Positions 4,882 through 33,184 are shown, numbered from the stretch's first letter. The stretch is 64,000 nt of DNA from Bacteroidota bacterium (GCA_020048915.1 JAIFLU010000223.1:8067-72066); one strand, 5' to 3'. The notes: generated from the letters alone by a model not told the origin. Program-made: numbers and translations.

Positions 4882-4890
4882 CTGTATGAA

Positions 4891-5844: not shown

Positions 5845-5864
5845 AGATCTTTTTATAACGATTT

Positions 5865-8800
5865 ATGAACCTATTCAAATCAACATTCGGGTTAATTATA
5901 CTTGTTTCACAGATATTTATCGTTTCGGCTTTTGGAATATCAGCAAAATTTACCGTTATAAAAAAGAGCAACTGTGCTCCGGCACTGGTCGAATTCACCA
6001 ATACTTCAACTTCCGGAGCCGGAATCACCTATAAATGGAATTTTGGGTTGGGCGCAATTGTCACTACTACCAGCAATTCGTTAAAAAGTCAGCTTTATAC
6101 CACCCCCGGCCAATATAAAATTACCCTGATTGCAACAAATGGAGTGGATACCGATAGCACCAGCGCTATAATAATTATTGCAAAAGGTCCGAAAGCGGAT
6201 TTTGCAGCTGTTCCTGCTTCAGGATGCAGTCCATTGCTGGTAAACTATACCAGTAATTCTGCCCCGGGCGATTCGGCTATTGCAACTACCGAATGGGATT
6301 TCAGAAATGGCGACTACCTCTCCGGAAACGCTGTACAATATACCTATCGTAACTCGGGCATGTATAACATAGCCCTGAAGGTGACCGATAAAAATGGATG
6401 TTCAAATTTTCTGGAGTCCGACAGTATTATTCAGGTTATGAAGAAACCCGTTGCAAATTTTGCAGCGCTGGATACATTTTCATGCACTCCGCCTCTCAAT
6501 GTAAGTTTCGTTAATTTATCGACTGGCACCTCCAATTTAACCTACAAATGGGTATATGGCAATGGACTTACATCGACAGAGATTAGCAATTCAACCCTTT
6601 ATAATTCATTGGGAAGTTTCGATGTGAAGTTAACTGCAACCGATCTGAACGGTTGTTCCGATTCGCTTGTAAAAAAATCGCACATTGTAATTGGAAGTCC
6701 GCAAGGGATATTGTCGGTTTTTGATTCGAACAACAACCCGGTTGATAAATCAATCCTTTGCAGCGGATCATATACATTTGCTTTTTCGATTGGTAATTTG
6801 TCCGATTATACATGGCTAATTAACGATAATAACAAAGTTACCACCATAACCGGTAACAGCACATTAACTTATCTGGTAAAGGATACCGGCATTTTGGAGG
6901 TTACCCTGATTTATGGGAAAAACGGGTTTTGCACCGAAAATATTCAGCGAACATTTGGCAAAAGCGCAATCAAAGCCGAATTTTCAATAGACGACTTCCT
7001 TTTTTGTTCCCTGCCTCACAAAGTTAAATTGCAGAACAATTCAAAAGATGCCACCAGCTATTCGTGGTATATATCCAACCGGTTTATTTCCGATAAAATC
7101 AATACGGATTATACAATTACCCAATCCGACATTCCTCAGGAAACCTATAAGCGATTATACAGTCACGAAACGGATGCTATTCGCATTCCATTTACCCTGG
7201 TGGCTACCAATAAAGAAGGGTGTACCGATGAAATTACCCGGGAAGCAGTTGTTTCGTTTCCGGTAGCGCGGTTTATGCCCGATAAAGTATCCGGTTGTGC
7301 TCCTTTGCAGGTTAGTCTTTCCGATTCGAGCAAATCGGCTTTTAAAATTGACGGATATACCTATAAAATTGGGGCTGAAACAATTTCAGTCCTAGATAAA
7401 ACGCCTGTAAAATACACTTTTACAACCCCGGGCGAATATTATGTTACCGAAATAATTAACAGCTCCGGTTGCCTTGATACCTCTTATGCTGTAAAAATTG
7501 TGGTGGGAGAAAAGCTGAAACCCGACTTTACAGTTACCCCGGCGGAAGTTTGCAACGGCGGCGGAATTCATATTGTTGCCGGTTCAAATAATAATTCGTC
7601 AGTGAGTTTATGGCGTCTAACATCAACCAATATATTCGATCTTAGTTTTGCTTCGATGCCCGATACCACAATTACAATTATTTCGGATACTTTGGGGTTT
7701 AAAAACATCCGCTTACAGGTAGATTATAACGGTTGCATTTCGGATACTACCAAAAAGGCTGTTTACAAAGTAATTGGTTCGGCTGGAAATTTTCTGGAAA
7801 CATTTTCGTGCGACAGCGCATTAACCTATCATTTTAAATCGGGCATGCTACCCGCAACTTCCCTCACATGGAATGTGGATACCGCCATTTTTAAAGATAA
7901 GGATTCCGTAAGGTACACGTTTCCGGCTGGAGGAAACTATACGGTGAAATTAACTGCTATCGACGGAGCCTCGAATTGTTCGTTTACACGGACAAAACTT
8001 ATAAAGGTCCGACAAGTAAAAGCCAATTTTACGCTAAACGACTCGGTATTTTGTGTAGGCGATTCGGTTTTAATGAATGCTACCTCATCTGTCGATTACA
8101 TAAACTCCTGTTACAACGAAGGGTTTTTATGGGATTTTGGTGACGATTCCCCTCCCCGAAGAACGTATTTACCGACATTCGACCATGTTTACACTGCAAG
8201 GGGAAAGTATATCCTTAATTTAATTACCACTGCCGAAAACGGTTGTGTTGATTCTGCCAAAAAGAATGTTTTTGTATACCGCCCTGCCGGAAGCTTTACC
8301 ACCGATAAAAAATTTGGCTGTATGCCTGCCATGGATGTGAAATTTGAGAATACTTCTACCGACAGTACTATTGTTAAATGGATTTGGGATTTTGGAGACG
8401 ATGTAACCAATAATACCAACATCAAAAAGCTTGCGCATTCCTATACCAGTGTCAAGCCCGTAACTTTTAACGCTACTTTGTCCGTTTTCGACGAACACCA
8501 GTGTTTTAGCAGCTTATCCATACCAATTACACTGGTTGGGATAAACGGTGAGTTTCAGGCAAACGACAATGCCATATGTGTAGGGCAAACTGTGAAATTT
8601 ACGCCCGAAGATACCAGTCTTGATAGTATTTTCTGGAATTTCGGGGATGGAAATACTTCAAAAACGCAAAACAGCAATACCTACAATAATCAGGGAAAAT
8701 ATAGTATTTCGCTCACTGCTTATAAAGATGGCTGTAGTAATACAATGACAAAACCCAATTACGTGATTGCCGAAAAGGCTGATGCCCAGTTTGTGGTAAA

Positions 8801-9788
8801 CGACAGTATTTTCAATTGCTACCCGGATACGATAATAGTGCAGCATAAAAACCTGAATGGAAGCCCTGTAATTAACAGGACCTGGACGTTTGACGCAAAA
8901 GAATCGAACAATACCACAAATTCGGTTATGTTTATTTATACCCGTCCCGGAAATTACACGGCGCAATTGAGAGTAAAAACCCTCAATGGATGCGCGGCAA
9001 GCAGTTCCAAAAATATTCTTGTAAATGGGCCAACAGCGGCAGCAAGTTTTAGTCCTTCGGAAATTTGCTATAACGAAGCCGTAAATTTCCAAATCGATTC
9101 CATGAAAAATGTAAGCAGTTTTAAATGGATTTTTGGCGACGGAACCACCTCAACAGTTTCCCCGGCAGTGCACAATTATACCGCACAGGGGTATATCGTT
9201 CCGGCGATACAGTTGATTAATAATAAATGTACCGTTTCGAAATCGCTCGACACGCTCTTTGTTTCCTATCAAAACTTAAAGTTTACCAGGGTGCCTTTGG
9301 GTGACGCCACCATAAATTTTGGCGATAGTATCCGGTTAACAATTCTTGCCGAGGCAAGCAATTTAAATTATGCGTGGTCGCCCGATTACAACATTTCATG
9401 TTTAACCTGCGGCAATCCGATGGTAGCGCCATTAAAGGATTTTACCTATACCGTTGGAATGAAAGATAAATGCTACGACATTACCGAAGAATTTAAGATT
9501 AAAGTAATTGCCGATTTTTATCTCGAAGCGCCATCGGCATTTACGCCTAACGGCGATTTGAGTAACGATATTTTTAAATTCGAGGCTAAGAACATTGCAA
9601 CAATCGACCTGAAAATTTTCAACCGCTGGGGGAAAATCGTCTTCTCTACCAACGATACCAGCGAAGGTTGGGATGGTACCGTGAACGGGAAAGCGCAAAA
9701 TGCAGATACCTATACATATTACATAAAAGCCGAAACCATTACCGGGCATAAGTTTGAGAAGAATGGAAGCTTTCTGCTGTTAAAGTAA
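5865..9788 (+). CDS. Large multi-PKD-repeat T9SS type-B cargo protein
   Basis: 1307 aa. About a dozen repeats of the PKD pattern (C.P..V.F.N.S....W.FGDG......Y...G.Y.V.L.....GC.D). The C-terminus AFTPNGDLSNDIFKF...GWDGTVNG...TYTYYI is a type-B sorting domain. Confidence 0.85.
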   Translation: MNLFKSTFGLIILVSQIFIVSAFGISAKFTVIKKSNCAPALVEFTNTSTSGAGITYKWNFGLGAIVTTTSNSLKSQLYTTPGQYKITLIATNGVDTDSTSAIIIIAKGPKADFAAVPASGCSPLLVNYTSNSAPGDSAIATTEWDFRNGDYLSGNAVQYTYRNSGMYNIALKVTDKNGCSNFLESDSIIQVMKKPVANFAALDTFSCTPPLNVSFVNLSTGTSNLTYKWVYGNGLTSTEISNSTLYNSLGSFDVKLTATDLNGCSDSLVKKSHIVIGSPQGILSVFDSNNNPVDKSILCSGSYTFAFSIGNLSDYTWLINDNNKVTTITGNSTLTYLVKDTGILEVTLIYGKNGFCTENIQRTFGKSAIKAEFSIDDFLFCSLPHKVKLQNNSKDATSYSWYISNRFISDKINTDYTITQSDIPQETYKRLYSHETDAIRIPFTLVATNKEGCTDEITREAVVSFPVARFMPDKVSGCAPLQVSLSDSSKSAFKIDGYTYKIGAETISVLDKTPVKYTFTTPGEYYVTEIINSSGCLDTSYAVKIVVGEKLKPDFTVTPAEVCNGGGIHIVAGSNNNSSVSLWRLTSTNIFDLSFASMPDTTITIISDTLGFKNIRLQVDYNGCISDTTKKAVYKVIGSAGNFLETFSCDSALTYHFKSGMLPATSLTWNVDTAIFKDKDSVRYTFPAGGNYTVKLTAIDGASNCSFTRTKLIKVRQVKANFTLNDSVFCVGDSVLMNATSSVDYINSCYNEGFLWDFGDDSPPRRTYLPTFDHVYTARGKYILNLITTAENGCVDSAKKNVFVYRPAGSFTTDKKFGCMPAMDVKFENTSTDSTIVKWIWDFGDDVTNNTNIKKLAHSYTSVKPVTFNATLSVFDEHQCFSSLSIPITLVGINGEFQANDNAICVGQTVKFTPEDTSLDSIFWNFGDGNTSKTQNSNTYNNQGKYSISLTAYKDGCSNTMTKPNYVIAEKADAQFVVNDSIFNCYPDTIIVQHKNLNGSPVINRTWTFDAKESNNTTNSVMFIYTRPGNYTAQLRVKTLNGCAASSSKNILVNGPTAAASFSPSEICYNEAVNFQIDSMKNVSSFKWIFGDGTTSTVSPAVHNYTAQGYIVPAIQLINNKCTVSKSLDTLFVSYQNLKFTRVPLGDATINFGDSIRLTILAEASNLNYAWSPDYNISCLTCGNPMVAPLKDFTYTVGMKDKCYDITEEFKIKVIADFYLEAPSAFTPNGDLSNDIFKFEAKNIATIDLKIFNRWGKIVFSTNDTSEGWDGTVNGKAQNADTYTYYIKAETITGHKFEKNGSFLLLK

Positions 9789-9827
9789 TTGAACTGAAAA
9801 ACGACTTTCGAACAAAAGTAACACCCT

Positions 9828-10886
9828 ATGAGAGATAGTAATAAAAATAAAAAGCATCCTTCAAACCTTAAATGGGTTCTCGTATTCGCAGTGATTATTG
9901 GGTGTTTATCTCCTGAAATTCATATTCAGGCACAGGATATCCATTTTTCGCAATTTTATGCTGCCCCTCTGCTTACAAACCCTGCCAATACAGGCATGTC
10001 GGGTGAAAACTTTAGGGTAGCAAATAATTTTCGAAATCAATGGGGGAAAATTGGAGTTCCGTTCCGTACTTTTTATACTTCGATTGATAAAAAGCTGAGC
10101 ATTTCGAACCAGTCATTCGGCATTGGGGGAGCTATAGTTCACGACCAATCATCCGCGTTCAACTTAGCTGCTGATGAGTTTTTAGTTTCGGTAAGCTATT
10201 CTAAAATTACAAACAATCACCAGTTTACGGTAGGACTTCAGCCGGGCTTTGCTTATAAATCGTACAATCTTAACAGTTTGACTTTCGGGTCGCAGTTCGA
10301 TGGGTCGAATGAGCTTTTCAACCCCAACCTTCCCAGCTCCGAAAATAATTTAGCTGGTAGTTTACAGTACTTCGACATGAATGTGGGCATATACTGGAGA
10401 ACACTTATTCGGAATATAATGCCCTCGGCTGGTTTGTCCATAAGTCATTTCTTAAGGCCGGTGGTTACCTTTTCTGCATCCGATCAAACTGTCCGCTTGC
10501 CGGTAAAAATTTCGTTTCATGGTCAGGTTAATATTCCCCTTACCAGCAGAATCGATATTGCTCCAACCTTGCTCTATAGCGCTGTTCCTGGAACCAACGA
10601 ATTACTGCTTGGGGCGATGGAAGGATATGCCTTGAATGATTTCTTTATTCCGGTTAAAAAAGTTTATGCCATTACGATGGTTCGGATAAATCCTTTCAAA
10701 AACATCGATGCGTTGATTCTCGGAGGTGGTGTTAAATTCCCGAAATTCGACCTGGGAATTTCGTACGATATTAATGTTTCCCCCTTGGCGCAAGCTTCTT
10801 ATTTTAATGGCGCCTTCGAAGTATCGTTGATATTTACTGGCGACCGGACTAAGAGGAATGCGAATGAACCTTGTTTTATATACTAA
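9828..10886 (+). CDS. PorP/SprF-family T9SS outer-membrane protein (second copy)
   Basis: DIHFSQFYAAPLLTNPANTG is the canonical PorP/SprF N-terminal motif. It has a signal peptide and lies directly downstream of the second cargo gene. Confidence 0.85.
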   Translation: MRDSNKNKKHPSNLKWVLVFAVIIGCLSPEIHIQAQDIHFSQFYAAPLLTNPANTGMSGENFRVANNFRNQWGKIGVPFRTFYTSIDKKLSISNQSFGIGGAIVHDQSSAFNLAADEFLVSVSYSKITNNHQFTVGLQPGFAYKSYNLNSLTFGSQFDGSNELFNPNLPSSENNLAGSLQYFDMNVGIYWRTLIRNIMPSAGLSISHFLRPVVTFSASDQTVRLPVKISFHGQVNIPLTSRIDIAPTLLYSAVPGTNELLLGAMEGYALNDFFIPVKKVYAITMVRINPFKNIDALILGGGVKFPKFDLGISYDINVSPLAQASYFNGAFEVSLIFTGDRTKRNANEPCFIY

Positions 10887-10904
10887 TCATTTATTTAGTT
10901 TTAA

Positions 10905-13055
10905 ATGAATAATCGCAATTTGACCTATATAATTTCAATTTTTAGAAATTTGTTTAGCCCTAAGATGAATTGTTTTGGAAATGTATGGTTTTATTCTATC
11001 ATTGCCTGGTTTTTCCTGACTCCAATGCAACTGATGGCGGCAACAGCGCCAAATGATTCTCTGAAGAAAGTTATAGCCGATTTAAAAGCAAAAGCAATTA
11101 ATTACGACAACAAAAAGGATGTTTACAACGCGATTGATTATTACAGCCGCTACCTTTCGTATGGGGAAAAAGATATAAAGTCGAGTTACCGCCTTGCTTC
11201 GTTATACTTTTTAACCCGGGATTATGCAAAGGCCAATCAGTATTTCGACTCGGTTATTCATATAAAAACCACGAAATATCCACTAGTATTTTATCAAAAG
11301 GGAATTGTATGCATGAGCCTCGAAAAATATGATATTGCGATAGAGGCGTTCACGAAATTCAGGAGGTTGTACAAGGACAACAACGATAGAAACAACTACC
11401 GCAAACTGGCGGCTATTTATATCGAAAGCGCTATCTGGGCAAAAGAACACCCCGAAAAAGATGCTGTTGTTTCGGTGGCACACCCCGGAACATCAATAAA
11501 CCATGATAATATAGACTTTGCGCCATTTCCGGTCGATGAAAATACCCTGATTTACGGAGCTATATATTCGGATGTATCAAAAAGTATAGCACCGGTACGC
11601 CAAATTTATAAAGCCACCAAAATAAATGAACAGTGGGAAACTGCCGGGTTACTGGAGGGCGACGTCAATAACCCCGGATATAATACCGGTAATGCTGTTA
11701 TTTCGGACGATGGGCAACGGTTATATTTTACACGGTCCCGTAAAAACTGGAAAAACGAAGACATCAACGAAATTTTTGTCAGTAACAGCGATGGATACAA
11801 ATGGCTAGCCCCACAAAAACTTCCATATCCGCTAAACGACGAAAATTATACTACTACCCAACCTGCAATTGGCAAAAGTTTGAAGTCGGGAAACGAAATC
11901 TTATATTTTGTTTCGGACCGGCATGGCGGAAAAGGGGGCTTAGATATTTGGTATGCTGAGTTTGATGCAAAAATAAAAGCTTTTAAAGAGCCTCATAATT
12001 TAGGAAGCGCCATAAATACTATTGGAGACGAATGTTGCCCGTTTTACGATGTTACCAACAGCTCACTCTATTTTAGTTCGAAAGGAAAGAAAACAGGTTG
12101 GGGAGGGTATGATATTTATAAGGCGGTCGGTTTTACACGAAAATGGACAGAATCCCTTCCGCTGCCTAAGCCAGTAAATTCGTGTTACGACGATTATTAT
12201 TTTTCTATTCTGAAAAACAGTAAAGAAGGTTTTTTTACTTCTAACCGCCCGGGGTCAATGACATTGGGGAATGGAAGCTGTTGCGATGATATTTTTTCGT
12301 TCCGGTTTAACGAGTGTGCAATGGTTAATGCGTTGGGAACCGTTCGTAATTCACTGGATTATGATATATATAACAGCCTCAACGAAAAATATCACCTCGG
12401 TTTGCAATTGCCCGAAAATAATATCGGCCTTGCCGATGTTCCGGTCGAATTGTATTTGCCGAGCGAAAAGGAAGACGACGATATATTGGTTTCGAGAACT
12501 ACCACCAACAAATTGGGAAATTATCGGTTTGAGCTGGAACGCAACAAAGAATATAAAGTGTTGGTGAAGAACTATGGTTATTTTGAAAAGAAAGTCACGG
12601 TAAAAACCAACGATATCGACTGCAACGATACCGTTAAAATTGGTACAACACTAATCAACTATTTGCCAAAAATAAACATTCGGATTAATATATATTACGA
12701 GATTGATAAATATGCGCTTTCAAACGAAGCACGGCAAACCATTGATACCACCCTTATGCCATTGTTCGACCTGTTTCCCAATGCTATCATAGAAATTGGC
12801 TCGCATACCGATAGTATCGGAACCGAACTGTATAACGTAAAGTTGTCGCAAAAGCGTTCCGAAAGTGTAGTGAATTATTTGATTTCGAAAGGTGTTTTTA
12901 GTGAACGGCTGGTAGCCAAAGGGTATGGGATGAGTATTCCGATTGCGCCAAACACCAATAGCGATGGTACCGATAATCCGGCAGGAAGGCAGCTGAACCG
13001 GCGAACGGAGATTAAAATTGTAGGCGATATATCTACCTTAAATATGGACGAATAA
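10905..13055 (+). CDS. OmpA-family protein with TPR and PD40/beta-propeller-like regions
   Basis: C-terminal OmpA_C motif (GSHTDSIGTELYNVKLSQKRSESVVNYL...NRRTEIKIV). N-terminal TPR-like helices. The central region has WD40-like/PD40 character (LYFTRSR..., LYFVSDR..., LYFSSKG...). M21 at 10965 is an alternative start. Confidence 0.8.
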   Translation: MNNRNLTYIISIFRNLFSPKMNCFGNVWFYSIIAWFFLTPMQLMAATAPNDSLKKVIADLKAKAINYDNKKDVYNAIDYYSRYLSYGEKDIKSSYRLASLYFLTRDYAKANQYFDSVIHIKTTKYPLVFYQKGIVCMSLEKYDIAIEAFTKFRRLYKDNNDRNNYRKLAAIYIESAIWAKEHPEKDAVVSVAHPGTSINHDNIDFAPFPVDENTLIYGAIYSDVSKSIAPVRQIYKATKINEQWETAGLLEGDVNNPGYNTGNAVISDDGQRLYFTRSRKNWKNEDINEIFVSNSDGYKWLAPQKLPYPLNDENYTTTQPAIGKSLKSGNEILYFVSDRHGGKGGLDIWYAEFDAKIKAFKEPHNLGSAINTIGDECCPFYDVTNSSLYFSSKGKKTGWGGYDIYKAVGFTRKWTESLPLPKPVNSCYDDYYFSILKNSKEGFFTSNRPGSMTLGNGSCCDDIFSFRFNECAMVNALGTVRNSLDYDIYNSLNEKYHLGLQLPENNIGLADVPVELYLPSEKEDDDILVSRTTTNKLGNYRFELERNKEYKVLVKNYGYFEKKVTVKTNDIDCNDTVKIGTTLINYLPKINIRINIYYEIDKYALSNEARQTIDTTLMPLFDLFPNAIIEIGSHTDSIGTELYNVKLSQKRSESVVNYLISKGVFSERLVAKGYGMSIPIAPNTNSDGTDNPAGRQLNRRTEIKIVGDISTLNMDE

Positions 13056-13064
13056 TATAAAACA

Positions 13065-13937
13065 TTGAAAAATAATCCAATGATGAAGATAAAATATAGT
13101 GTATACCTAATTGTTTTTGTAGTAAGCCTTCGCAGTTCATTCGGGCAATTTCAATTACCCGATGGTGTAACGGCAACCCCGTCCTTTCTAGATGAAATTA
13201 GAAAAAATTATGCCGGCGAAAACGCGTATCCTTTCGATTTAAATACGGTTTCGCAAACGGTAAAGATTCCTGTTCGGGTGCACATAATAAAAAACAGAAA
13301 TGGATTTGCCGGGGTCAATTTGGTAGATGTGAATAATAGCGTGAGTATTGCAAACAGCTATTTTAAGAATATTGGAATTCGGTTTTTTATCGATTCGGTT
13401 AATTATGTAAACGATTATAACTACGGATACATTACCAACGACAGCAATACTGTTGAACTATTAACCAAATTTGGGTTAGTAAACAGAATTAATTTGTTTT
13501 TGGCCGATTCGGTAAAAAAAGCTCCCTACAGAAGTTACGGATATACATATTTCCCGGATGTAGCCGACAGTAACTATATTTTTCTCGATAAAAATTATAT
13601 TACCGGAAATGCGCTTACCACCTTGCTCGGACATTTTATGGGACTGCTATCTACCCACGAAAACCTGGGAGGCTCTGAACTTGCCAGCGAAAATAACTGT
13701 GCAACCAGTGGCGACTATATTTGCGACACTTATGCCGATCCCGACTTATATAATAAGGTAGACAGTACCTGCAAATACATTGGTACGGCACGGGATAATA
13801 ACGGGAAATATTTTGTACCGTCTGTTGCGAATCTCATGTCGCATTCAAGAGAGGATTGCAAATGTATTTTTTCGCCCCTCCAATATCGGCGTATGTACTA
13901 TTATTATTTGAAATACCGGCAAAATTTGAAGTATTGA
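13065..13937 (+). CDS. M43/pappalysin-like metallopeptidase-fold protein with degenerate zinc motif
   Basis: The overall pattern (IPVRVHII..., NLFLADSV...GYTYFP, GDYICDTYADP, NLMSHS...C...FSPLQ..RM) resembles peptidase M43. The expected HExxHxxGxxH site instead reads TLLGHFMGLLSTH. The TTG start is at 13065; the ATGs at 13080 and 13083 are more likely. Confidence 0.55.
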   Translation: MKNNPMMKIKYSVYLIVFVVSLRSSFGQFQLPDGVTATPSFLDEIRKNYAGENAYPFDLNTVSQTVKIPVRVHIIKNRNGFAGVNLVDVNNSVSIANSYFKNIGIRFFIDSVNYVNDYNYGYITNDSNTVELLTKFGLVNRINLFLADSVKKAPYRSYGYTYFPDVADSNYIFLDKNYITGNALTTLLGHFMGLLSTHENLGGSELASENNCATSGDYICDTYADPDLYNKVDSTCKYIGTARDNNGKYFVPSVANLMSHSREDCKCIFSPLQYRRMYYYYLKYRQNLKY

Positions 13938-14082: not shown

Positions 14083-14308
14083 TATCACCACCATAATATT
14101 TTCTTTTAAAAAAGCTTTCAGGTTTTAGGGGTATCAATTTTACGATGCATCTATGAGTTATAAAACCAATTATCAGAAACCTAAAAGCCTTGAAATATGA
14201 AAGCAATCACAATTTTAATTCAGATTGAAAAAGACCCTTAACCTTCTTTTTTAGAACTCCTTAATTGATATAATTCTCTCTCTAAGTATTTACTAAAATC
14301 TATTTGTT

Positions 14309-17300
14309 ATGAAAAATTTATCCTTTCTCATACTGGCCGTGCTTTGCCTTCTTTTTCAGGAAGAAACGGATGGCCAAATCCGTCGTGTTACGGGGAAATT
14401 AACTGATCCAACTACCGGTGAGCCCCTCCCGGGAGTGAATGTCTTATTGGAAGGCACTACCACCGGCACGGTAACCAATTTTGATGGTTACTACGAAATT
14501 GATGCACCTGTTGGTTCCGTTCTTTTAGTCAGTTTTGTTGGTTATAGCACTCAGCGTATAGTGGTGGGTCCTGAGCCAGAAAGTGAACGCGTTAAAAGCC
14601 TTACAAAAGTATACCGGCATAGCATCCCCGACAATCCAAATAAGTCTTTATCACCCTACTTCTTTGTACAAAGCGATAATCCATCGTTAGACCGAATGCC
14701 CCTGAAGGCCACCAATGTGGATGTATCCATTGCAGGGGTTATAGCCGACGTAAAAGTAAAACAGTTGTATGTAAACGAAGGAAGGAATACCCTGGAGGCT
14801 ATCTATATTTTCCCCGGTTCTACCAGGGCTGCTGTATATGGCATGCAAATGCAGATAGGCGACCGAATTTTAAAGGCGAAGATCCGCGAAAAAGTTCAAG
14901 CCCGCAAAGAATACGAAACTGCCAAGGCCGAAGGGAAAACAGCTACTCTATTGGAGCAAAAACGCCCTAATGTTTTTCAAATGAACGTAGCTAATATTTT
15001 ACCAGGTGATTCCATTTGGGTAGAGCTTCAATACACAGAATTGATGGAGCCAACCGAAGGGATTTATCAGTTTGTATACCCTACGGTTGTTGGCCCTCGT
15101 TATTCCACCACCGAAGATACCCCGGAAAATAAAGACGAAAAGTGGCTTGAGAACCCCTACCTCACCGAAGGAAAACTGCCAAATTATACTTTTTCCATCA
15201 AAACACACCTGAATGCCGGCGTCCCTATTCAACGACTATCATCCACCAGCCACAAAATAATGGCAACCTATACAAATGCAAGGACAGCAGAAATTGAGCT
15301 GGATCCATTCGAAACTTTTGGCGGTAACCGCGACTATATCCTCAATTACAGTCTTCGCGGCAAGCAAATTGAAACCGGGCTCCTCACCTACCACCATAAC
15401 GATGAAAACTTCTTTCTCCTAATGGTTCAACCGCCAGAAAAGCCAACCGAAAGTGAAATTCCTCCCCGAGAATATATTTTTATTATTGATGTCTCCGGAT
15501 CGATGAACGGCTTCCCGCTGAATGTCTCAAAAAACCTCTTTGAAAGCCTGATTTCGCGCCTTCGAACATACGATAAATTCAATATTTTATTATTTGCTGG
15601 TGGCAATCAGGTTTTCAGTGAAGAATCGGCCAATGCCACCCCCGAAAACATTAAGGATGCCATACGCTTTGTGAATAATCAGAACGGAGGAGGCGGAACA
15701 GAACTACTGCCAGCATTAAAAAGGGCGTTAAACATGCCTGTAGACGAAGAATATGCCCGAACATTTGTAATTCTGACAGATGGGTATGTAAGCGTTGAAA
15801 AGGAAGCGTTTCAGCTTGTGCGAAATAATCGGGCAAAGGCAAATCTGTTTGCCTGCGGAATTGGCTCTTCGGTAAACCGCTATTTAATTGAAGGACTTGC
15901 CAATGCAGGTATGGGAGAACCTTTTATTGCCACCAGCGAATTGGAAGCAAAAAAAGTAGGCAAAAAAATGATTGATATAATTGAAAAGCCTGTATTTACG
16001 CATATCAACATCGATTACCATCACTTTAAAGCTTACGATATTGAACCAACCGTTGCAGCAGATATTTTTGCCGAACGACCACTGATCCTCTTTGGTAAAT
16101 TCGAAGGAAATCCTTCGGGAAACATTACTATCAGCGGGTATTCTGGAAATAAATTAAAATCAATTAACCTTTCAGCCGACAGCTCAACCAAGGAAAGCAA
16201 CCAGGCACTTCGTTATCTCTGGGCGCGAAATAGAATAAAGTATCTGGATGATTTTGCCCAATATTATGAGACTTCGGGAAATTATTACTCTGAAACTAAA
16301 ATACAGCCGAGCGAAGCACACGAAAAACTAATCACCGAACTGGGATTGAAATATAATCTCTTAACCAATTACACGTCGTTTATTGCGGTGGATAGCCTTG
16401 TTCGAAACAAAACAAAACAATACGAAACGGTAAAACAACCTCTCCCTTTGCCGCAAGGGGTATCGAACTTGGCGGTAGGCGATGCAATAAGCCTTAGTCT
16501 AATGCCCGATATTAAAAGTCTCGAAGAAGTAGTTGTGGTTGGGTATGGAACTGTAAGAAAAGCTGATTTGACCAGTGCTGTTTCTTCAGTGAACACCTCG
16601 GAGTTCAGTAATAATGGTAATACCTCAGTACAACAGGTACTGCAAGGGCGCATAAGTGGAGTAGAGGTAATAACCAATCAGGGCGCACCCGGTTCTTCAG
16701 CAAACATACTTATCCGGGGAAATAGCACTATCGGGAGTAGCAACCCACTCTATATTCTGGATGGAGTTCCCGTTAATTCCGAAACAATCACCCAGCTTAG
16801 TCCAACAGAAGTAGAATCAGTCGAAGTATTGAAGGATGCATCATCCACAGCCATTTATGGGGCTCGCGGAGCAAATGGTGTAGTGGTTATTAACAGTAAA
16901 AAAGGGAAGGAACAAAGCAAGTTTCAAATTCAGTTAAATTCAACCGTTGGATTTGATCGGGTGAACAAGCTTCCAAACCGTCAAAATCTATATGCCCAGG
17001 GGCTGACTGAAAATGGGGATACCAAATGGGCAGGAGCCGACCAAAATAATTTGTTTAGCTGGGGACCTGCCATATCAGGACTTACGTACGATGGCAGTAA
17101 TTATTTGTTCGACAAAAACGGGCATCTCATTGCCAACAACGCTACAAACGGCATGAATGCAAAGGTATTTGATCCGTACCAGGTTTTCAAAACTGGCGTA
17201 AAAACTACGAATGAATTTAGCATTTCCTTATCGCACAGGCAGCAAACATTGAGGATTTCGTATACTAACACTCAAAAATCGGGAATTTTGCCAGAATCAA

Positions 17301-19291
17301 ATACCACCCTGAATGCTATAAAACTGCGAAGCAACCATGTTCTCAAATTTGCAAAAATAGGAACCACATTTGCCTACCAGAACAACGATTCGAAAAACAC
17401 GGGCAATCGTTCCTTAAACCCCGGGATGATGTATTCAATTTTGAACAACCCAACAACATTCGATTTATTGAATGGCTTCAACCCAAAAGAAGCTAACCAG
17501 CAAGTTCAGAGCTACATGCTGCCCAATAACCTCCAACGAAGTGCTGCACCAGCATTGGTTAACAATCCCTATTGGATGCTACACCGCAATCTATACAGGG
17601 AAAACAACCGTCAACTGGTAGGAGGATTGGATCTGGATTTCCAACTCATCCATAACCTTCACCTCAAAACCATCAGCAGTTTTGAGCAGTCGGAAAATGA
17701 GATGCAATATGGTATATCCCGAAACTCGGCATCCGTGACGGCAGGTAGCTTATTTTACCGAAACATGAATACCCAAAGTTTCAACCAACGGGTAGAGCTG
17801 AATTTCTCAAAATCGGGCAATCTGGAACTAAACAGCAGCCTTGGGTATCACTTTAACTGGAATAATTCGTCCATTGAAAGAAACAATGGATACGAGCTCG
17901 CAACTGAAACCGGTTATGCCTTAAGCGATGCAAAATTACTCGACACATACTCCTTCAATTTGTACCGCCGGACACATGCCGGATATGGCACGCTGAATGC
18001 AATGTACAATAACCTGGTAGGAATAAACGCTTCCTATCGTCAGGAAAATTCCAGCACCTGGAAGAATTCCGCCGTACCTCTGAAAACATGGTACCTTGGT
18101 GGTTTATTCAAATTCTCCAATCTGCTCAATTCCTCATCCTGGCTAAATAATGGAAAGCTATTTGCCAATGTTAGCTATTGCGACCGGGAATTCACCGCTC
18201 CATTAGCTGATAACGCATGGAATACTTCACAATTCGACCTCAACAATGTCACCAACTTTTATTCGATGCGAGAAGTGAAGGGCTTCGAAAACCTTTCACC
18301 CGAAAAAGTAAGTAAATTTGAAACCGGGTTAACGCTCGATTTTTGGAACAATCGAATTTCGACCAATGTAAGTTTTTATAACTCCATGAGCAAACAATTA
18401 ATAGTCCCATCCATTCAAAATACTGATGTACAATTAATAAACAAGGGCAATTTAAGAACCAAAGGCTTGGATGCCGATCTGACATTTATTGCGCTTCAAA
18501 ATGCCCTGAACTGGAAGATTAAAGCCACATTTACCCGTTACCGGAATAAAGTTACCGGATTAGCTGCGACCGACACTATAAGGATCGCAGGTTTTCAGGA
18601 AGTATCGTCGTGCCTGTTGAACAATCGGCCTTATGGAGTATTGGTGGGATCGAAGTTTCAACGGAACGAACATAACCAGAAGATTATCGGCAATGATGGC
18701 TTTCCTTTGGTTGATTCCAAACCGGGAATTATAGGGAACACCAATCCCGATTGGATTGCCGGTATCGAAAACTCCTTCCGTTGGAAAGGCATTGAACTTT
18801 CCTTTCTATTCGATTTCAAAAAAGGGGGAGATGTTTGGAACGGCACCCGAGCAACCATGAATTATTACGGAACTTCGGAAGAAACAGGGAATGCAAGGAA
18901 TATCAGCGGATATGTTTTTGATGGTGTAACCTCGTTGGGTGAACCGAATATGCTACCGGTCGATTTTTCTAATTCCTCAACCAATACCGCCTTGAATCGC
19001 TGGGTTCGTTATGGGAAAACGGGTGTTGCAGAAGAATCGGTCGAAGACGGCAGTTGGATTCGGCTACGCGAGCTTTCAATATCGTATAGCTTACCTCGGA
19101 ATTTCGTTCAAAAATTAAAAATGAAATCGTTAACAATCACTACTTCCGGACGAAATTTATGGATGCACACCCCTTATACCGGAATCGACCCTGAAACCAC
19201 CCTTACCGGTATGAATAACGGCATTGGCCTGGATTATTTCAACATGCCCAATGTCAGATCGTATGCGATCGGAATAAAGGTTGGGTTTTAA
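14309..19291 (+). CDS. SusC/RagA-type TonB-dependent outer-membrane transporter with inserted VIT-vWA module
   Basis: Signal peptide. A CarboxypepD_reg-like N-terminal extension covers aa 24-86 (GKLTD..GEPLPGVNVLLEGT..GTVTNFDGYYEI). VIT-like region at aa ~117-247. vWA domain with a DxSxS MIDAS motif (DVSGS, aa 394-398, nt 15488-15502). The module ends at NYTSFIAVD (~aa 696). Then comes a SusC TonB-box and plug (LEEVVVVGYG at aa 738, ...YILDGVP...VLKDASSTAIYGARGANGVVVI). The barrel ends in a terminal ...KVGF. Confidence 0.85.
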   Translation: MKNLSFLILAVLCLLFQEETDGQIRRVTGKLTDPTTGEPLPGVNVLLEGTTTGTVTNFDGYYEIDAPVGSVLLVSFVGYSTQRIVVGPEPESERVKSLTKVYRHSIPDNPNKSLSPYFFVQSDNPSLDRMPLKATNVDVSIAGVIADVKVKQLYVNEGRNTLEAIYIFPGSTRAAVYGMQMQIGDRILKAKIREKVQARKEYETAKAEGKTATLLEQKRPNVFQMNVANILPGDSIWVELQYTELMEPTEGIYQFVYPTVVGPRYSTTEDTPENKDEKWLENPYLTEGKLPNYTFSIKTHLNAGVPIQRLSSTSHKIMATYTNARTAEIELDPFETFGGNRDYILNYSLRGKQIETGLLTYHHNDENFFLLMVQPPEKPTESEIPPREYIFIIDVSGSMNGFPLNVSKNLFESLISRLRTYDKFNILLFAGGNQVFSEESANATPENIKDAIRFVNNQNGGGGTELLPALKRALNMPVDEEYARTFVILTDGYVSVEKEAFQLVRNNRAKANLFACGIGSSVNRYLIEGLANAGMGEPFIATSELEAKKVGKKMIDIIEKPVFTHINIDYHHFKAYDIEPTVAADIFAERPLILFGKFEGNPSGNITISGYSGNKLKSINLSADSSTKESNQALRYLWARNRIKYLDDFAQYYETSGNYYSETKIQPSEAHEKLITELGLKYNLLTNYTSFIAVDSLVRNKTKQYETVKQPLPLPQGVSNLAVGDAISLSLMPDIKSLEEVVVVGYGTVRKADLTSAVSSVNTSEFSNNGNTSVQQVLQGRISGVEVITNQGAPGSSANILIRGNSTIGSSNPLYILDGVPVNSETITQLSPTEVESVEVLKDASSTAIYGARGANGVVVINSKKGKEQSKFQIQLNSTVGFDRVNKLPNRQNLYAQGLTENGDTKWAGADQNNLFSWGPAISGLTYDGSNYLFDKNGHLIANNATNGMNAKVFDPYQVFKTGVKTTNEFSISLSHRQQTLRISYTNTQKSGILPESNTTLNAIKLRSNHVLKFAKIGTTFAYQNNDSKNTGNRSLNPGMMYSILNNPTTFDLLNGFNPKEANQQVQSYMLPNNLQRSAAPALVNNPYWMLHRNLYRENNRQLVGGLDLDFQLIHNLHLKTISSFEQSENEMQYGISRNSASVTAGSLFYRNMNTQSFNQRVELNFSKSGNLELNSSLGYHFNWNNSSIERNNGYELATETGYALSDAKLLDTYSFNLYRRTHAGYGTLNAMYNNLVGINASYRQENSSTWKNSAVPLKTWYLGGLFKFSNLLNSSSWLNNGKLFANVSYCDREFTAPLADNAWNTSQFDLNNVTNFYSMREVKGFENLSPEKVSKFETGLTLDFWNNRISTNVSFYNSMSKQLIVPSIQNTDVQLINKGNLRTKGLDADLTFIALQNALNWKIKATFTRYRNKVTGLAATDTIRIAGFQEVSSCLLNNRPYGVLVGSKFQRNEHNQKIIGNDGFPLVDSKPGIIGNTNPDWIAGIENSFRWKGIELSFLFDFKKGGDVWNGTRATMNYYGTSEETGNARNISGYVFDGVTSLGEPNMLPVDFSNSSTNTALNRWVRYGKTGVAEESVEDGSWIRLRELSISYSLPRNFVQKLKMKSLTITTSGRNLWMHTPYTGIDPETTLTGMNNGIGLDYFNMPNVRSYAIGIKVGF

Positions 19292-19313: not shown

Positions 19314-19353
19314 AAAAAAAACATAGCGGAATTCACACTTCCGCTATGTTTTT
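19314..19353. terminator. Rho-independent, probably bidirectional, terminator
   Basis: An A8 run, then stem ACATAGCGGAA (19321-19331), a 7-nt loop, stem TTCCGCTATGT (19339-19349) and a T5 run. It lies between convergent genes ending at 19291 (+) and 19472 (-). Confidence 0.75.
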
Positions 19354-19471: not shown

Positions 19472-20785
19472 TTACTTTGGAGTTACATAATTATCTTTAG
19501 CTCGCATAAATATCATTCCGATGCGGGTGGGCGATTTTTTCAAATTCTCAACAACCTCTTCAAAGGGCTGATCCATAATTTCGTGAATAGCAGGCAAACT
19601 GTTGGCGTGGCGGAAAATAATATTCCCCCATTCGTCCTTTACAATGATCCCCATATGTGCAGAAATTACACCCGGAATAGTTGTTACAATTGATACAATC
19701 TCCCCTCCTTTTAAATTATCCTTTATTTTTAACAAATCTTCGCGGGGAATATAGTAAGCCGTATCATTTTGAACAGGTATTGAATCTTTTAATTGTTCCA
19801 GACTAATGCCGTTTTTTAAATAAAATGCTTGTCGGTCAATTAACTTGGATATTTTTTGGGTGTAATTGCCCCCTATTTCTTTTGTAGCATCTTCTAATAA
19901 CCAATCGTTATTAGGTAACCATTCGCTTATGGTATAATGGTTTCGGGACACATACCTCACCAGTCCGTTTTTGTACCGGATCTTCTGTAAATTGTCGTAC
20001 ATCAGATTGTATTCGCACGAAATAGACAAGGCAAGTACATGTTCACAAAACGTCATACAATCCATCCGGGCAAAATCAATCACCGGATCGGGATCTGGAA
20101 ATTGGCTTGCGCCTTCGCCCAGATTATCAATCAGGTAAGGTGTACCCTTACATTTTTCGGAATAAAATTGGATACGCTGGCTCATTGTCTCTAGCTTATC
20201 TCCTTCTATCATGAGCTTGTTAAAATCGCGCGCTATCATTTCATGGGTTCCTTTTTCGGGCGAATTTCCATATTCCTGTGAAAAGTGCAACCGCGTTACC
20301 TTATCCATTATTCCACGCACCACAAACACATCTGCAATTAAACAGTCCGGGGTAGTTGATGTTCCGGTAGAATCATCCTGGTAAAAAGATGATTCTCCGA
20401 TATAAATTTGAACGGATGAACTATTTTGATCTGTTATAACGCCATGCGCTAAAAAATAGCCATCGTGAAAAGTCCCGTCGCTGAGCTTTACTCCAACAAA
20501 CTGCGGGATAAACACTATACTCCCCAATAATATCTGACATGGATCCACTGCTACTGTTCTGTAAGGAATCTTTTTATAGTTTAAGTAATTACTCACTGAA
20601 GTGGTATCGGTTGCTTCAATGGCACATGTGCCTTTAAGCAGGTATTCGGAGTTTTTATTGAATAATTGATTGTATTCCTGACTGTAACCAGCGAATACAT
20701 GTATTAGTATCGTAAAATAAAAAATACATTTTTGAGTAGAAAACATCTTCATTTGCAGAATATTAAAGTATCCATCCGGACACAA
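19472..20785 (-). CDS. DUF1460 (N-acetylmuramoyl-L-alanine amidase-like) protein with N-terminal 3D-like domain
   Basis: The C-terminal two thirds (FARMDCMTFCEHVLAL...NHYTISEWLPNN...ISAHMGIIV) resemble DUF1460/Amidase_6. The N-terminal VAVDPCQILLGSIVFIP... resembles a 3D (MltA/RlpA-like) domain. The likely true start is MKMFSTQ at 20752, which gives a signal peptide. Confidence 0.6.
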   Translation of the reverse strand: MCPDGYFNILQMKMFSTQKCIFYFTILIHVFAGYSQEYNQLFNKNSEYLLKGTCAIEATDTTSVSNYLNYKKIPYRTVAVDPCQILLGSIVFIPQFVGVKLSDGTFHDGYFLAHGVITDQNSSSVQIYIGESSFYQDDSTGTSTTPDCLIADVFVVRGIMDKVTRLHFSQEYGNSPEKGTHEMIARDFNKLMIEGDKLETMSQRIQFYSEKCKGTPYLIDNLGEGASQFPDPDPVIDFARMDCMTFCEHVLALSISCEYNLMYDNLQKIRYKNGLVRYVSRNHYTISEWLPNNDWLLEDATKEIGGNYTQKISKLIDRQAFYLKNGISLEQLKDSIPVQNDTAYYIPREDLLKIKDNLKGGEIVSIVTTIPGVISAHMGIIVKDEWGNIIFRHANSLPAIHEIMDQPFEEVVENLKKSPTRIGMIFMRAKDNYVTPK

Positions 20786-27343: not shown

Positions 27344-30300
27344 TCATTTAAATGTGATGTTTAAACCTACTGATAAGCCTCTTGGACTAGGTAGTGCCCA
27401 AACATCGTACCCTTCGCCACCAACACCTCCGGCCGCTGCCGATACCGTGTTTCCAACAGGATCAAGTCCTGAATAATTGGTCCAGGTAATCAAGTCGTTC
27501 CCTACTACAAAAACACTTGCGTTAGAGATAAGTATTTTTTGCAGCCAGCTGGAAGGGATATTATAAGATAACCTCAATTCCTGCAAATGCAGATAATTAA
27601 CATCATTTTCAATCCAATCCTCATCGCCACCTTCGTAAATTGATGCACCGTATGTTGTATAATTCACAGCGATAGTGTTTTTGGTAGGATTGGCGGTATT
27701 TTCGTTACCATCGGCCAGTACTCCATTAAAAACTACCGGTCCTTGTTCACGTAATTTTACTGATTCCCAACTGGTACCATAGGTCATCATGGTGCGTTTT
27801 GTTCCGTTTACTACCGAAGCCTTGTAACGGCCGGAGAACATTGCCGAAAGGTGAATACCTTTAAAGCTTAAACTGGTTGTTAACCCGAAACGCAATTTAG
27901 GCTCACGGTTCCCAATTACACTCCATTTAGAGTTTTTCATAGGTAAGCCAGTGGTGGGGGAAATTAAAATATCTCCCGCTTCGTTGCGCGTATATGCCAA
28001 ACCTGTTAGGGTAGTGACAGGATTTCCTACCATAATTCCATCGCGAATATTTCCGGAGTTCCATGTATACGCATCGTAATACTCGGTTACATTTTTAGGT
28101 AAACCAACTACTTCCGATTTGGTACCGGAAGCATTAACCCCAACATTCCAGCGGAAACCGTTTGCGGTTCGGATAACATCTCCGTCTACATGAGCTTCCC
28201 ATCCCCAGGTGTCGAACGACCCTACGTTCAGGTTATTTAACACAAAACCTGTGGCATAGCTCAAGCGAAAGCCCTTAACAATCTGATCGGTACACTCTGT
28301 CCAGAAATGAGTAAAGTCAACATTTAAACGGTCATTGAAAAAACGACCCTCGAAACCTATTTCTTTTGATGTTGTAATTTCGGGTCTAAGATTTGGATTT
28401 GGGCCTGTAAAACCGTATTTAAATCCGCCACCAGTTAACCCGGTAGCTTCTAATTGAGGATCGATACTAAGCGGGTCGGTATCCTTACCAACCTGCGCAA
28501 CCGATCCCCGGAGTTTCAAATATGTAATACTGTTGATATTTTTCACAAACGGAAGTTCGGAGAGGACAAATGAACCTTCGATGGCAGGATAAAAGAATGT
28601 CCTGTTTTTTACAGGAAGAGTCGAAGACCAGTCGTTACGTCCGCGAAGGGTAACAAAAGCCATATTGTTATAACCGAGTTCAAATTGACCTGAGAAAGCC
28701 TGAACTCTGCGTTTTGTGGTTGTTTGCTTTGACGACAGGGTTTTTGCATCGCAATTATTGATGGATTGGAAATCGGCCACTAAGAAGTTGGAACCAAACG
28801 ATGCCAGACGGTTTACCCCGTTTTCAACCTGGTGATAACCAACCTGAATGGCAACTGTAAATTTATTAAAGAGCTCTTTGTTATAACCGGCAAGAAGGTT
28901 TAATGTAGGATCGGAAAAGTTTGATTTTGCTATGTTATAAGTACCTGCTCCAGCATTATTTTTAAAATAGTAAGGGTGAATCGAGGTTTGAAAAGTTTGT
29001 GCCCCAACATCCCAACCGGCCTGAGCACGGATAAAAGCATCCCTGAAAGGTGTAATGTTAACCGCTGCCGATGATATGAAACGACTGGACTCATCGTAGA
29101 ATTTATTGTTATACAGACCAAATAAAGGATTCAGAAGATCGGTGTCCGTATAGTAAGCTGGCATACGCATATGGGAGCCATCCTCCTGAAGGTAATTCGA
29201 CATATCGTCAATGTTCGGCCAAATCATCGCCTTGAATAATGGCCCATCGGTTCCCCGGGGCGCTTTATTATTGGACGATTTAATATATTGCATAGACGAT
29301 TCGAAACTCATCCATTTGGTGATCTGAGCCTTACCTGAAAACGAAATGGTCATTCTCTTTAAATCGGTATTCTTTATTGTACCCGTATTATCGAGGAATG
29401 ATGCCGATCCACGGACAGAGATTTTTTCTGTTCCTCCCTCAGCCGAAATATTATGTTTAGAAGTAAAGCCGGTTTGCATTAAAGCATCAATATTATTGTA
29501 AGTTTTTGTTCCCTCGGGAAATAAACTACCATAATGTTTTGTATTATACCAGTTGGTTGTACCATAGGAACCATTGGCATATTTGTTCTGTATTTCCGGA
29601 AAATCGTACGATTTATCCCAACGGAACATATTGCTGTACGTTACCTTACCTTTACCAACCCCTCCCTTTTTTGTAGTGATAATGATGGCCCCGTTTGAAG
29701 CATCCGAACCGTAAAGAGCTGCTGCTGCTGCGCCTTTCAATACGGTCATCGACTCAATATCCTCGGGATTAAAGTCGTTTCCGCGCGACGAGAAGTCTAA
29801 GTTACGAACCGAGAATGCCGCTCCACCGTCAGCCAGGTTAACCGGGTTAAACGTAGAGTTATTCATTGCAATACCATCAACAACATATAAAGGCTGGTTA
29901 TTACCCGATATGGATGTAATACTGCGCAATACCACGGAAGTTGAAGAACCCGGGGCACCGCCACTTGAAGTAACGGTCATACCTGCAACGCGGCCCTGAA
30001 GAGCGGAGATAAAATTATCCCTACCCGATTCGCTAATTTCAGCGGCTTTTACATTCTGAACCGACGACCCAATGGTGCGGGCAACACGCTTCATCCCAAA
30101 CTCGGCTGTAACTACAACTTCGCCCAGGGTTTTCATGTCGGGAACCATGTGAACATCAATATTGGCTGTTCCTGCTACTACTATTTCTTCCGTTACAAAT
30201 CCAATGAAAGAAAAAACAAGCACTTGTCCGTTGGAGACATCGATAGAGTACTGACCATCTATATCCGATACTGTACCTATAGTTGTATTTTTAACAACTA

Positions 30301-31666: not shown

Positions 31667-31678
31667 TATGTCTTCATT

Positions 31679-32858: not shown

Positions 32859-32862
32859 TTAA

Positions 32863-32879
32863 AACATGTAATACATGTT
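32863..32879. promoter_or_regulatory. Perfect 8-1-8 palindrome AACATGTA-A-TACATGTT, a candidate operator
   Basis: It lies 5-21 nt upstream of the ykfC-like start codon at 32858. It contains the core TGTAATACA, which is also present at 55818-55826 and as its reverse complement TGTATTACA at 33167-33175. Confidence 0.35.
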
Positions 32880-33154: not shown

Positions 33155-33184
33155 AATTTGTAATGTTGTATTACATCTTACAAA
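33155..33184. promoter_or_regulatory. Nested palindromes ATTTGTAA...TGTAAT-N5-ATTACA...TTACAAAT, a candidate operator
   Basis: TGTAATGTTGTATTACA (33159-33175) is a perfect 6-5-6 palindrome. It is nested within ATTTGTAA (33155-33162) and TTACAAAT (33177-33184). It lies 50-79 nt upstream of the namZ ATG. Confidence 0.35.

Follow-up and report, generated by a model that had tools for sequence, protein, structure and literature searches.

A recurrent SusC/RagA-type transporter of Bacteroidota carries an ITIH-like VIT-vWA unit beside its TonB box and may belong to an ECF-sigma-controlled envelope system

TonB-dependent transporters (TBDTs) are among the most intensively studied machines of the outer membrane, and to our knowledge only two periplasmic add-ons are recognised in those of Bacteroidota, an N-terminal extension (NTE) as well as the STN domain. 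A 64,000-nucleotide stretch of DNA from a Bacteroidota bacterium (GCA_020048915.1, JAIFLU010000223.1:8067-72066; hereafter the window) contains a gene at positions 14309..19291 of the plus strand, stop codon included, that encodes a SusC/RagA-type TBDT in which a VIT-vWA unit of about 640 amino acids (aa) stands between the NTE and the TonB box. This raises the question of whether such a protein is genuine and what an adhesion-type unit might do at this place. We show here that the protein is real and conserved and that, as a TBDT, it bears a third kind of add-on domain, which is probably periplasmic. As to its function, we tentatively propose a TonB-dependent outer-membrane protein whose periplasmic VIT-vWA unit would bind a partner beside the TonB box, within an envelope system controlled by an extracytoplasmic function (ECF) sigma factor.

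A previous sequence-only reading of the window had described one uninterrupted reading frame of 1660 codons, running from a signal peptide and an NTE through VIT and vWA domains to a TonB box, a plug and a barrel. Translation confirmed a single ATG-initiated open reading frame (ORF) of 1660 aa with zero internal stops, and the Pfam and NCBIfam profiles returned the domains in just this order. Inspection of the sequence and alignment with the N-termini of the family place the signal peptide at about aa 1-22 (14309..14374). It is followed by the NTE, a CarboxypepD_reg-like Ig-fold domain (aa 27-92, 14387..14584; PF13715, CarbopepD_reg_2, 8e-17) that shares 49% identity with its counterpart in the canonical SusC encoded in the same window. 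The unit resembling the inter-alpha-inhibitor heavy chains (ITIH) extends from SLSPYF to TSFIAVD (aa 113-695, 14645..16393), as judged from the NCBIfam model TIGR03788, a profile search of the PDB and the fold match of an AlphaFold2 (AF2) model. It comprises a VIT domain (aa 132-242, 14702..15034; PF08487, 2.7e-34) and a vWA domain (aa 390-536, 15476..15916; PF13768, VWA_3, 1.9e-17; PF00092, 5e-10). The DxSxS motif of the metal ion-dependent adhesion site (MIDAS), DVSGS, lies exactly where the earlier reading had put it (aa 394-398, 15488..15502), and T464 and D491 complete the site beside D394, S396 and S398. All five residues are invariant in family alignments of 8 and of 60 sequences; judged by these residues the MIDAS is intact, and metal binding itself is predicted.

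TSFIAVD (aa 689-695) is followed by a conserved linker motif, KQPLPLPQGVSNLAVG (aa 709-724, 16433..16480), which is common to stand-alone VIT-vWA proteins of other phyla. The TonB box LEEVVVVGYG, nearly invariant across the family, follows at aa 738-747 (16520..16549), and both the TSFIAVD end and this box were found as the sequence-only reading had named them. The plug (aa 751-858, 16559..16882; PF07715, 6e-19) is accompanied by the SusC/RagA signature TIGR04057 at aa 834-864 (55.4 bits, cutoff 46.2) and leads into a SusC-type β-barrel of 22 strands (about aa 870-1660, 16916..19288) assigned by TIGR04056, AF2 and Foldseek. TIGR04056, the SusC/RagA model, matches aa 726-1660 over model positions 66-981 with 497.6 bits, above its cutoff of 368.25, and TIGR03788, a VIT-vWA sortase-target model, matches aa 135-722 with 402.7 bits (2.7e-120), under its cutoff of 551.65. 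No STN domain was matched in the protein by Pfam or NCBIfam at E<=0.01. NTE, EVVVVGYG-type TonB box, plug signature and 22 strands are thus held in common with NTE-bearing SusC/RagA transporters such as SusC, BT1763 and BT2264 of Bacteroides thetaiotaomicron and RagA of Porphyromonas gingivalis, from which the window protein differs by its VIT-vWA unit. The distance from NTE to TonB box is about 645 aa, as opposed to about 10-25 aa in canonical SusC proteins. In the window's own canonical SusC (27344-30433, minus strand), for which a spacing of about 25 aa between extension and TonB box had been given, the NTE ends at aa 108, 10 residues ahead of the plug match that starts at aa 119.

Could the gene nevertheless be an artefact, arising from a chimeric assembly or from two genes read through as one, or else a pseudogene in decay? 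Nothing speaks for this beyond the fact that the gene is unusually long and solitary. Three contigs from independent assemblies (ENA ERZ27248460, ENA ERZ27248459 and JGI 3300033446) encode the identical 1660-aa protein, and the GC content stays flat at 0.40-0.45 over both junctions of the module. Isolate genomes, namely those of Rhodocytophaga rosea (CP048222), of Dysgonomonas and Bacteroides spp. and of Pontibacter, contain the same architecture and are among the sources of about 80 homologous clusters, and every domain is intact and confidently folded in AF2. The earlier worry about an assembly junction was therefore not borne out by the three assemblies, the flat GC content and the isolate homologues, which likewise rule out read-through and pseudogene. 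We regard the artefact explanation as effectively refuted and its remaining probability as negligible.

Structure prediction was performed with AF2 on aa 22-870, using a 60-sequence alignment, and in a second run on aa 726-1660. In the first model the VIT-vWA unit is compact (pLDDT 85-95) and lies between disordered linkers. The NTE is moderately confident (pLDDT 74-83), the linker after it is of low confidence, and the segment aa 707-762, which holds the KQPLPLPQGVS motif and the TonB box, is disordered, with pLDDT values of 29-49 across the linker motif at aa 709-724. The modelled unit aligns with ITIH1 (6FPY) along the entire crystal structure (622 columns, E 8e-32), and the PDB profile search covered the whole unit with PARP4 (3e-53) and ITIH4 (2e-35). 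The second model contains the plug and 22 long strands (pLDDT 85.7, pTM 0.87). Foldseek returned BT2264 as the top match of this barrel part (TM-score 0.83), together with the levan SusC BT1763, RagA and ButC (TM-scores 0.7-0.83). Because AF2 folds both halves and both match experimental structures, each half is, in these models, complete and native-looking, and the two are connected by flexible linkers, which differ in length between family members. The homology to the human heavy chains (ITIH1, 6FPY; ITIH4) and to PARP4 comprises the VIT domain, the vWA domain with its MIDAS and a C-terminal segment. Unlike these proteins, the window unit is bacterial, probably periplasmic and embedded in an outer-membrane transporter, and it shows no sign of the C-terminal cleavage or the transesterification chemistry of the ITIH proteins.

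The protein is also no one-off but belongs to a recurrent family. About 80 protein clusters formed at 90% identity share its architecture at 38-46% overall identity to the window protein; their sources are Cytophagales, Dysgonomonas, Bacteroides, Prevotella and Pontibacter. When a library was clustered at 50% identity, TBDT-fused forms made up about 20 among the best 150 representatives. Database annotation of the members goes no further than 'SusC/RagA family', 'VIT domain-containing' or 'Ca-activated chloride channel family' protein. Our full-text literature searches found no paper with a VIT or vWA domain in a TBDT and none on VIT-vWA proteins in ECF operons, in agreement with the sequence-only reading, which was aware of no described function for such an architecture.

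Comparison of the window protein with the family by segment gave identities of 53-63% for the VIT-vWA unit, 40-63% for the NTE and 37-54% for the plug. The barrel reaches 29-36% among proteins of the same barrel type and 20-28% against other barrel types that carry the same N-terminal part, and the barrel loops show low conservation. By sequence identity the VIT-vWA unit is the best-conserved part of the protein, more so than the transporter. Since this unit is the most conserved and its MIDAS is invariant or nearly so, the conserved business end would be periplasmic, which suggests that selection acts on the periplasmic module and that the key function is exerted in the periplasm. The TonB box is nearly invariant, and coupling to TonB is therefore probably retained.

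One functional explanation would be an ordinary nutrient importer whose periplasmic VIT-vWA unit captures cargo, for instance a metal chelate or an acidic ligand, as it leaves the barrel. The TBDT is complete, as an importer would require, and MIDAS sites of vWA domains in general coordinate divalent cations and acidic ligands. However, the module is conserved on barrel-free proteins and across phyla, no inner-membrane transporter or catabolic gene is linked to it in any locus examined, and neither a SusD gene nor the context of a polysaccharide utilization locus (PUL) is present, which makes this explanation very improbable in our view. The missing SusD and PUL context also set the window protein and its examined homologue loci apart from typical SusC/RagA systems. 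A SusD/RagB gene was found neither beside the window gene nor at 13 other homologue loci examined (including L010, L029, L036 and L040), and a hidden SusD partner was hence rejected as a candidate. The downstream arrangement previously described, with a terminator and a convergent gene in place of a SusD gene, was confirmed: a bidirectional intrinsic-terminator hairpin at 19317..19353 lies between the gene and the convergent gene of an AmiA-like amidase.

The module itself also occurs apart from a transporter. At least 552 species genomes from Bacteroidota, Desulfobacterota, Acidobacteriota, Nitrospirota, Nitrospinota and other phyla proved, in a genome scan with the VIT-vWA alignment, to encode an orthologue that is 52-61% identical. 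The usual orthologue is a protein of about 790 aa with a signal peptide, the VIT-vWA module, the KQPLPLPQGVS linker and a small C-terminal domain. In Bacteroidales this domain is TonB_C (PF03544, 6e-13; TIGR01352 above cutoff), and in Desulfobacterota it is an AgmX/PglI TonB-like tail as in GltG/GltJ (NF033768, 3e-19). Microscillaceae orthologues (L011 9899-12391; L013) continue with a TonB-box-like LQEVVVTAIG and two LysM domains, a form that may be either what remains of a fusion to a TBDT or a variant tethered to peptidoglycan. SusC-type, other-type and Oar-type TBDTs are further C-terminal partners. The module is hence joined either to an element that bears a TonB box or to a domain that binds one, and this choice of partners suggests that it works at the interface of TonB box and TonB_C. 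The proteins with TonB_C or AgmX/PglI tails that are encoded in ECF operons share the module and the linker with the window protein and, in Bacteroidota, the promoter motif described below with orthologues of its clade; they are soluble and carry the TonB-box-binding domain, whereas the window protein carries the TonB box, plug and barrel. Because the module precedes the TonB box and in its orthologues is joined to TonB_C or LysM, which like the other partners named here are periplasmic, we infer that it resides in the periplasm, as the sequence-only reading had reasoned.

Not all members follow the domain order of the window protein. Two SusC-type fusions (P0082 and P0090) and a fusion to an Oar-type barrel (P0092, 1949 aa) have no NTE, other proteins lack the barrel and consist of NTE-VIT-vWA-plug or of VIT-vWA-TonB-box-plug (933-939 aa), and soluble NTE-TonB-box-vWA proteins also occur. 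From these forms it follows that NTE and TonB box constitute a portable module. They also qualify the earlier claim that the VIT-vWA unit is an internal insertion and not an end-to-end fusion: SusC parts do stand on both of its flanks, but the NTE-less and barrel-less forms and the portability of NTE and TonB box make the claim a tentative one.

The exchange of partners raises the possibility that the barrel is mainly an outer-membrane anchor, and that the VIT-vWA unit is an effector which, by analogy with the heavy chains of inter-alpha-inhibitor or with alpha-2-macroglobulin, would stabilise the envelope or act as a trap. C-terminal tethers indeed swap by lineage (sortase signal, LysM, TonB_C or TBDT) with the module constant at 50-60% identity, the barrel loops are poorly conserved, and the promoter motif discussed below also precedes alpha-2-macroglobulin genes. 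The nearest NCBIfam model, moreover, is the sortase-anchored TIGR03788. This marine proteobacterial sortase-target family is the best curated VIT-vWA match, and in both cases a VIT-vWA unit is followed by a tethering device. Membership in it was rejected, as the score is under the cutoff, an LPXTG-type sorting signal is missing and a TBDT serves as the tether. A pure anchor would, however, have no use for a TonB box, a plug and a SusC signature, all of which are well conserved, and barrel-less VIT-vWA-plug proteins retain the TonB box. We therefore consider it unlikely that the barrel acts mainly as an anchor.

The surroundings of the homologous genes were surveyed by clustering ORFs from 80 genome loci and others. 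Of the 65 VIT-vWA loci with 2 kb or more of sequence upstream, 34 encode an ECF sigma factor within 5 kb. In Desulfobacterota, sigma factor, zf-HC2 anti-sigma factor and VIT-vWA protein form one operon. In Bacteroidales, the sigma gene is followed by the gene of a 409-aa protein ending in TonB_C, and this pair faces a divergent operon that encodes a 232-aa TonB_C protein and a VIT-vWA-TonB_C protein. The complete NTE-VIT-vWA-SusC gene is the last one of an operon in Dysgonomonas (L005/L024, L029 and L036) and in Bacteroides UBA939 (L040), after genes for an ECF sigma factor, FecR, a CarbopepD_reg_2 protein and a GldM-C-like protein. The same first four genes occur in a further locus (L092; ENA ERZ19996873 scaffold_8_c1) before two barrel-less plug proteins (6739-10802), in which NTE-TonB box-plug (380 aa) adjoins VIT-vWA-TonB box-plug (933 aa). 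The closest clade of the window gene, comprising Rhodocytophaga and several metagenome contigs, consists of orphans with unrelated neighbours. The description of the gene as an orphan had thus missed the linkage to sigma and anti-sigma factors, the TonB_C-fused orthologues and the common promoter motif. An ORF of 290 aa upstream of the window gene (13065-13937) was tried as a homologue of the GldM-C-like gene of Dysgonomonas and rejected, no similarity being detected (E 0.99).

Operons of this kind would fit cell-surface signalling of the strict FecA type, in which a substrate bound at the surface would change the plug and TonB box, and a VIT-vWA unit in place of STN would directly contact the anti-sigma factor at its periplasmic domain and free an ECF sigma factor that induces the system. 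The sigma-FecR operons of Dysgonomonas and Bacteroides UBA939 end with the gene, as just described, and the variant operon of L092 begins with the same four genes; the module is N-terminal to the TonB box, as STN is in known transducers. A vWA domain in an anti-sigma factor has a precedent as well, since ECF289 anti-sigma factors contain vWA and DUF3520 (PMC7826278). Like FecA, FpvA and the anti-sigma-linked SusC-like proteins of Bacteroides, the window protein thus has an extra periplasmic domain before its TonB box, and its Dysgonomonas and Bacteroides relatives likewise follow an ECF sigma factor and a FecR-type anti-sigma factor. In contrast to them it has no STN, its extra domain is a 70-kDa MIDAS-bearing unit, and neither it nor its nearest clade adjoins a sigma or FecR gene. 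In addition, the orthologous module resides mostly on soluble proteins encoded downstream of sigma and anti-sigma genes, which fits a regulated product equally well, and the FecR-type operons are without the promoter motif described in the following. We rate a role as FecA-type transducer as somewhat unlikely. Periplasmic vWA domains tied to ECF regulation or to TonB/Tol machinery are further represented by E. coli YfbK and by the transmembrane (TM)-anchored vWA proteins proposed as 'force transducers' (PMC12204202); these and the ECF289 anti-sigma factors have no VIT domain, no fusion to a TBDT and other modes of anchoring.

The upstream regions of three orphan-clade orthologues (L004, L090 and L091) have in common the sequence TTATGGAAT-N13-GCATC, located 35-70 nt from the start codon, and a fourth (L213) possesses it with one mismatch. 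This ECF-type motif thereby precedes four of the five orphan-clade orthologues for which DNA is available. In the form TTATGGAAT-N13-(G/T/C)CATC it is also present before five Bacteroidales VIT-vWA-TonB_C operons, and overall its distance to the start is 27-160 nt. The exact 11-base core has six matches in the 1.47 Mb of loci compared with about 0.7 expected by chance. Five of the six are located just upstream of VIT-vWA genes or operons, including one in the sigma-adjacent intergenic region of L088, where L027, L032 and L066 have one-mismatch variants. FecR-type operons are without TTATGGAAT. Its position and distribution make the motif a putative target promoter of the ECF sigma factor.

The window gene itself is preceded by a degenerate copy, TTTTAGGGGTA-N13-GCATCT, on the plus strand at 14122..14157. 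With a position weight matrix (PWM) score of 6.9 it ranks 23 among 127,930 window positions; degenerate, not significant and not convincing alone, it is a weak candidate for the promoter of the gene. A scan of 13-21 kb for sigma-70-type promoters returned fewer sites than shuffled sequence and is hence uninformative.

The motif was further used, as a 14-base pattern, in a blind scan of metagenomes that yielded at least 120 loci. Among the matches listed, to which all of the following counts refer, 30 intergenic instances have an ORF start at most 100 bp downstream, and 12 of these 30 ORFs share one theme, as they encode VIT, vWA-YfbK, alpha-2-macroglobulin or DUF4139 proteins. VIT proteins are found at L093, L120 and L160, and a VIT-NTE-plug protein at L168. 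A complete alpha-2-macroglobulin (2111 aa, L111 5821-12153) and an MG2-domain protein (L150 3-2270) come directly after the motif. DUF4140/DUF4139 proteins occur at L118, where NTE and TonB box are internal, and at L162. Two loci (L159 31-1893 and L196 132-1988) encode, with the motif directly upstream, soluble proteins of about 620 aa that consist of signal peptide, NTE, TonB box (DELVVTGYG or EECVVVGYG), vWF_A, VWA and YfbK_C; truncated versions are present at L116 and L155. In L159 and L196 the N-terminal 'address' of a SusC protein is carried on a YfbK-type vWA protein. Taken together, these genes suggest that alpha-2-macroglobulin and MG2 genes are co-regulated with those of VIT and vWA proteins, and they delineate a putative regulon of periplasmic VIT, vWA, alpha-2-macroglobulin and DUF4139 proteins that bear an NTE, a TonB box or TonB_C.

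In ten further instances the motif falls within an ORF of about 200 codons, as long as an ECF sigma gene, and the next gene starts about 200 bp further on; loci with the exact motif in such ORFs include L098, L099, L116, L149, L155, L188, L193 and L208. At two other loci, L134 and L185, the motif is followed by a short ORF that represents an ECF sigma gene's 3' end and shares 65-72% identity with known sigma genes of this kind. A motif inside a sigma coding sequence could be an internal, autoregulated promoter or reflect a coding constraint. The downstream genes were scanned for seven of the ten. Five encode NTE and/or TonB_C behind an anti-sigma-like N-terminus, as NTE-TonB_C in three cases, plug fragment-NTE-TonB_C in one and NTE with TonB box in one. 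The remaining two are a gene cut by the contig end, with an NTE, and a gene without Pfam match; at a similar site in L156 the downstream gene encodes TonB_C alone. The genes downstream of sigma at L027 (7218-9043), L099, L149, L155 and L188 encode anti-sigma-like proteins of the periplasmic NTE plus TonB_C type, except that one has a plug fragment in addition and one has NTE and TonB box. Such proteins resemble TonB7 and TonB11 of B. thetaiotaomicron, both of which have TonB_C together with a CarboxypepD_reg-like domain and are encoded near regulators (10.1101/2023.07.07.548152), and they may represent 'TonB-like anti-sigma factors'.

On these grounds we tentatively favour the following mechanism. 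The product of the window gene is an outer-membrane protein of about 185 kDa, the C-terminal 935 residues of which form a complete SusC/RagA-type transporter that would work without a SusD lid. NTE and VIT-vWA unit would hang in the periplasm on two flexible linkers, and the unit would bind a periplasmic partner via its MIDAS in a manner dependent on divalent cations. Being only about 40 residues away from the TonB box, the unit would act where TonB-type C-terminal domains dock, be it TonB itself or the putative TonB-like anti-sigma factors. Embedded in the outer membrane, the protein would belong to an ECF-sigma-controlled envelope system with a role in surveillance, trapping or signalling, and the other members would be periplasmic VIT, YfbK-like vWA, alpha-2-macroglobulin and DUF4139 proteins, each with a TonB box, often after an NTE, or a TonB_C domain. 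The pairing of TonB box and TonB_C presumably links these components, and what the MIDAS binds, and to what end, is likewise conjectural.

Several observations weigh against this mechanism. No ligand, partner or phenotype is on record for any family member, and the complete, conserved SusC barrel suggests a transport function which the model leaves unexplained. An ECF sigma factor, FecR, an anti-sigma factor or any other component is absent from the 64-kb window according to tblastn and Pfam searches, and the orphan clade has no conserved neighbour, the flanks differing at every locus examined. The assignment of the promoter is derived from position and co-occurrence only, the window copy of the motif scores 6.9 as against 27-40 at true sites (chance about 0.06 for the interval), and most of the metagenome matches among the at least 120 loci are due to chance and lie inside long ORFs.

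A more far-reaching version, which we consider doubtful, assigns the protein to the outer-membrane node of a new envelope system. Here an ECF sigma factor would be held by a TonB-like anti-sigma factor (TM-NTE-TonB_C) and control a regulon of 'innate-immunity-like' proteins, namely VIT-vWA, YfbK-type vWA, alpha-2-macroglobulin and DUF4139 proteins, that is wired by the pairing of TonB box and TonB_C and not by STN and FecR. Its task would be to sense, or else to intercept, what happens at TBDTs, such as the exposure of a TonB box or toxins that parasitise TBDTs, and the VIT-vWA-SusC proteins would constitute a new class of transducer or trap.

Other features of the window and of the homologous loci are recorded here as separate observations. 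Upstream of the gene, 2752-13937 comprises two tandem pairs of genes for a type IX secretion system cargo and a PorP/SprF protein. The cargo proteins (2752-4881 and 5865-9788) have PKD repeats and a CHU_C sorting domain, the PorP/SprF genes lie at 4891-5844 and 9828-10886, and a PorE-like TPR/PD40/OmpA protein (10905-13055) is followed by the 290-aa ORF mentioned above (13065-13937), which has no Pfam match. Genes for peptidoglycan and N-acetylmuramic acid (MurNAc) recycling are scattered near SusCD pairs at 19472-20785, 30533-34463 and 55971-57701; they encode the AmiA-like amidase, an MR_MLE-type epimerase, an SH3/peptidase protein, a NamZ exo-MurNAc-ase, a BadF-type kinase and a MurQ-like SIS protein, and by gene content this region looks like a muropeptide-scavenging locus. 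A 779-aa ORF at 57772-60111 has no Pfam match. On two contigs with close orthologues (P0002 and P0011, JGI 3300071358), genes for Wza-like (Poly_export/SLBB) and Wzc-like polysaccharide-export proteins are located 3' of the gene; among the loci seen, such neighbours are confined to these two.

For the biology of TBDTs, the family described here adds to NTE and STN a third, probably periplasmic add-on, a 70-kDa integrin/ITIH-like adhesion unit located by the TonB box. The comparative evidence joins the function of the NTE, NTE-bearing TonB paralogues such as TonB7 and TonB11, alpha-2-macroglobulins, YfbK-type vWA proteins and an ECF sigma factor into one proposed system. Homologues are available in culturable hosts suited to genetic work, namely Rhodocytophaga rosea, Dysgonomonas and Bacteroides spp. 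If the proposed system is true, it would represent a new kind of defence or of signalling across the envelope that is built on the pairing of TonB box and TonB_C.

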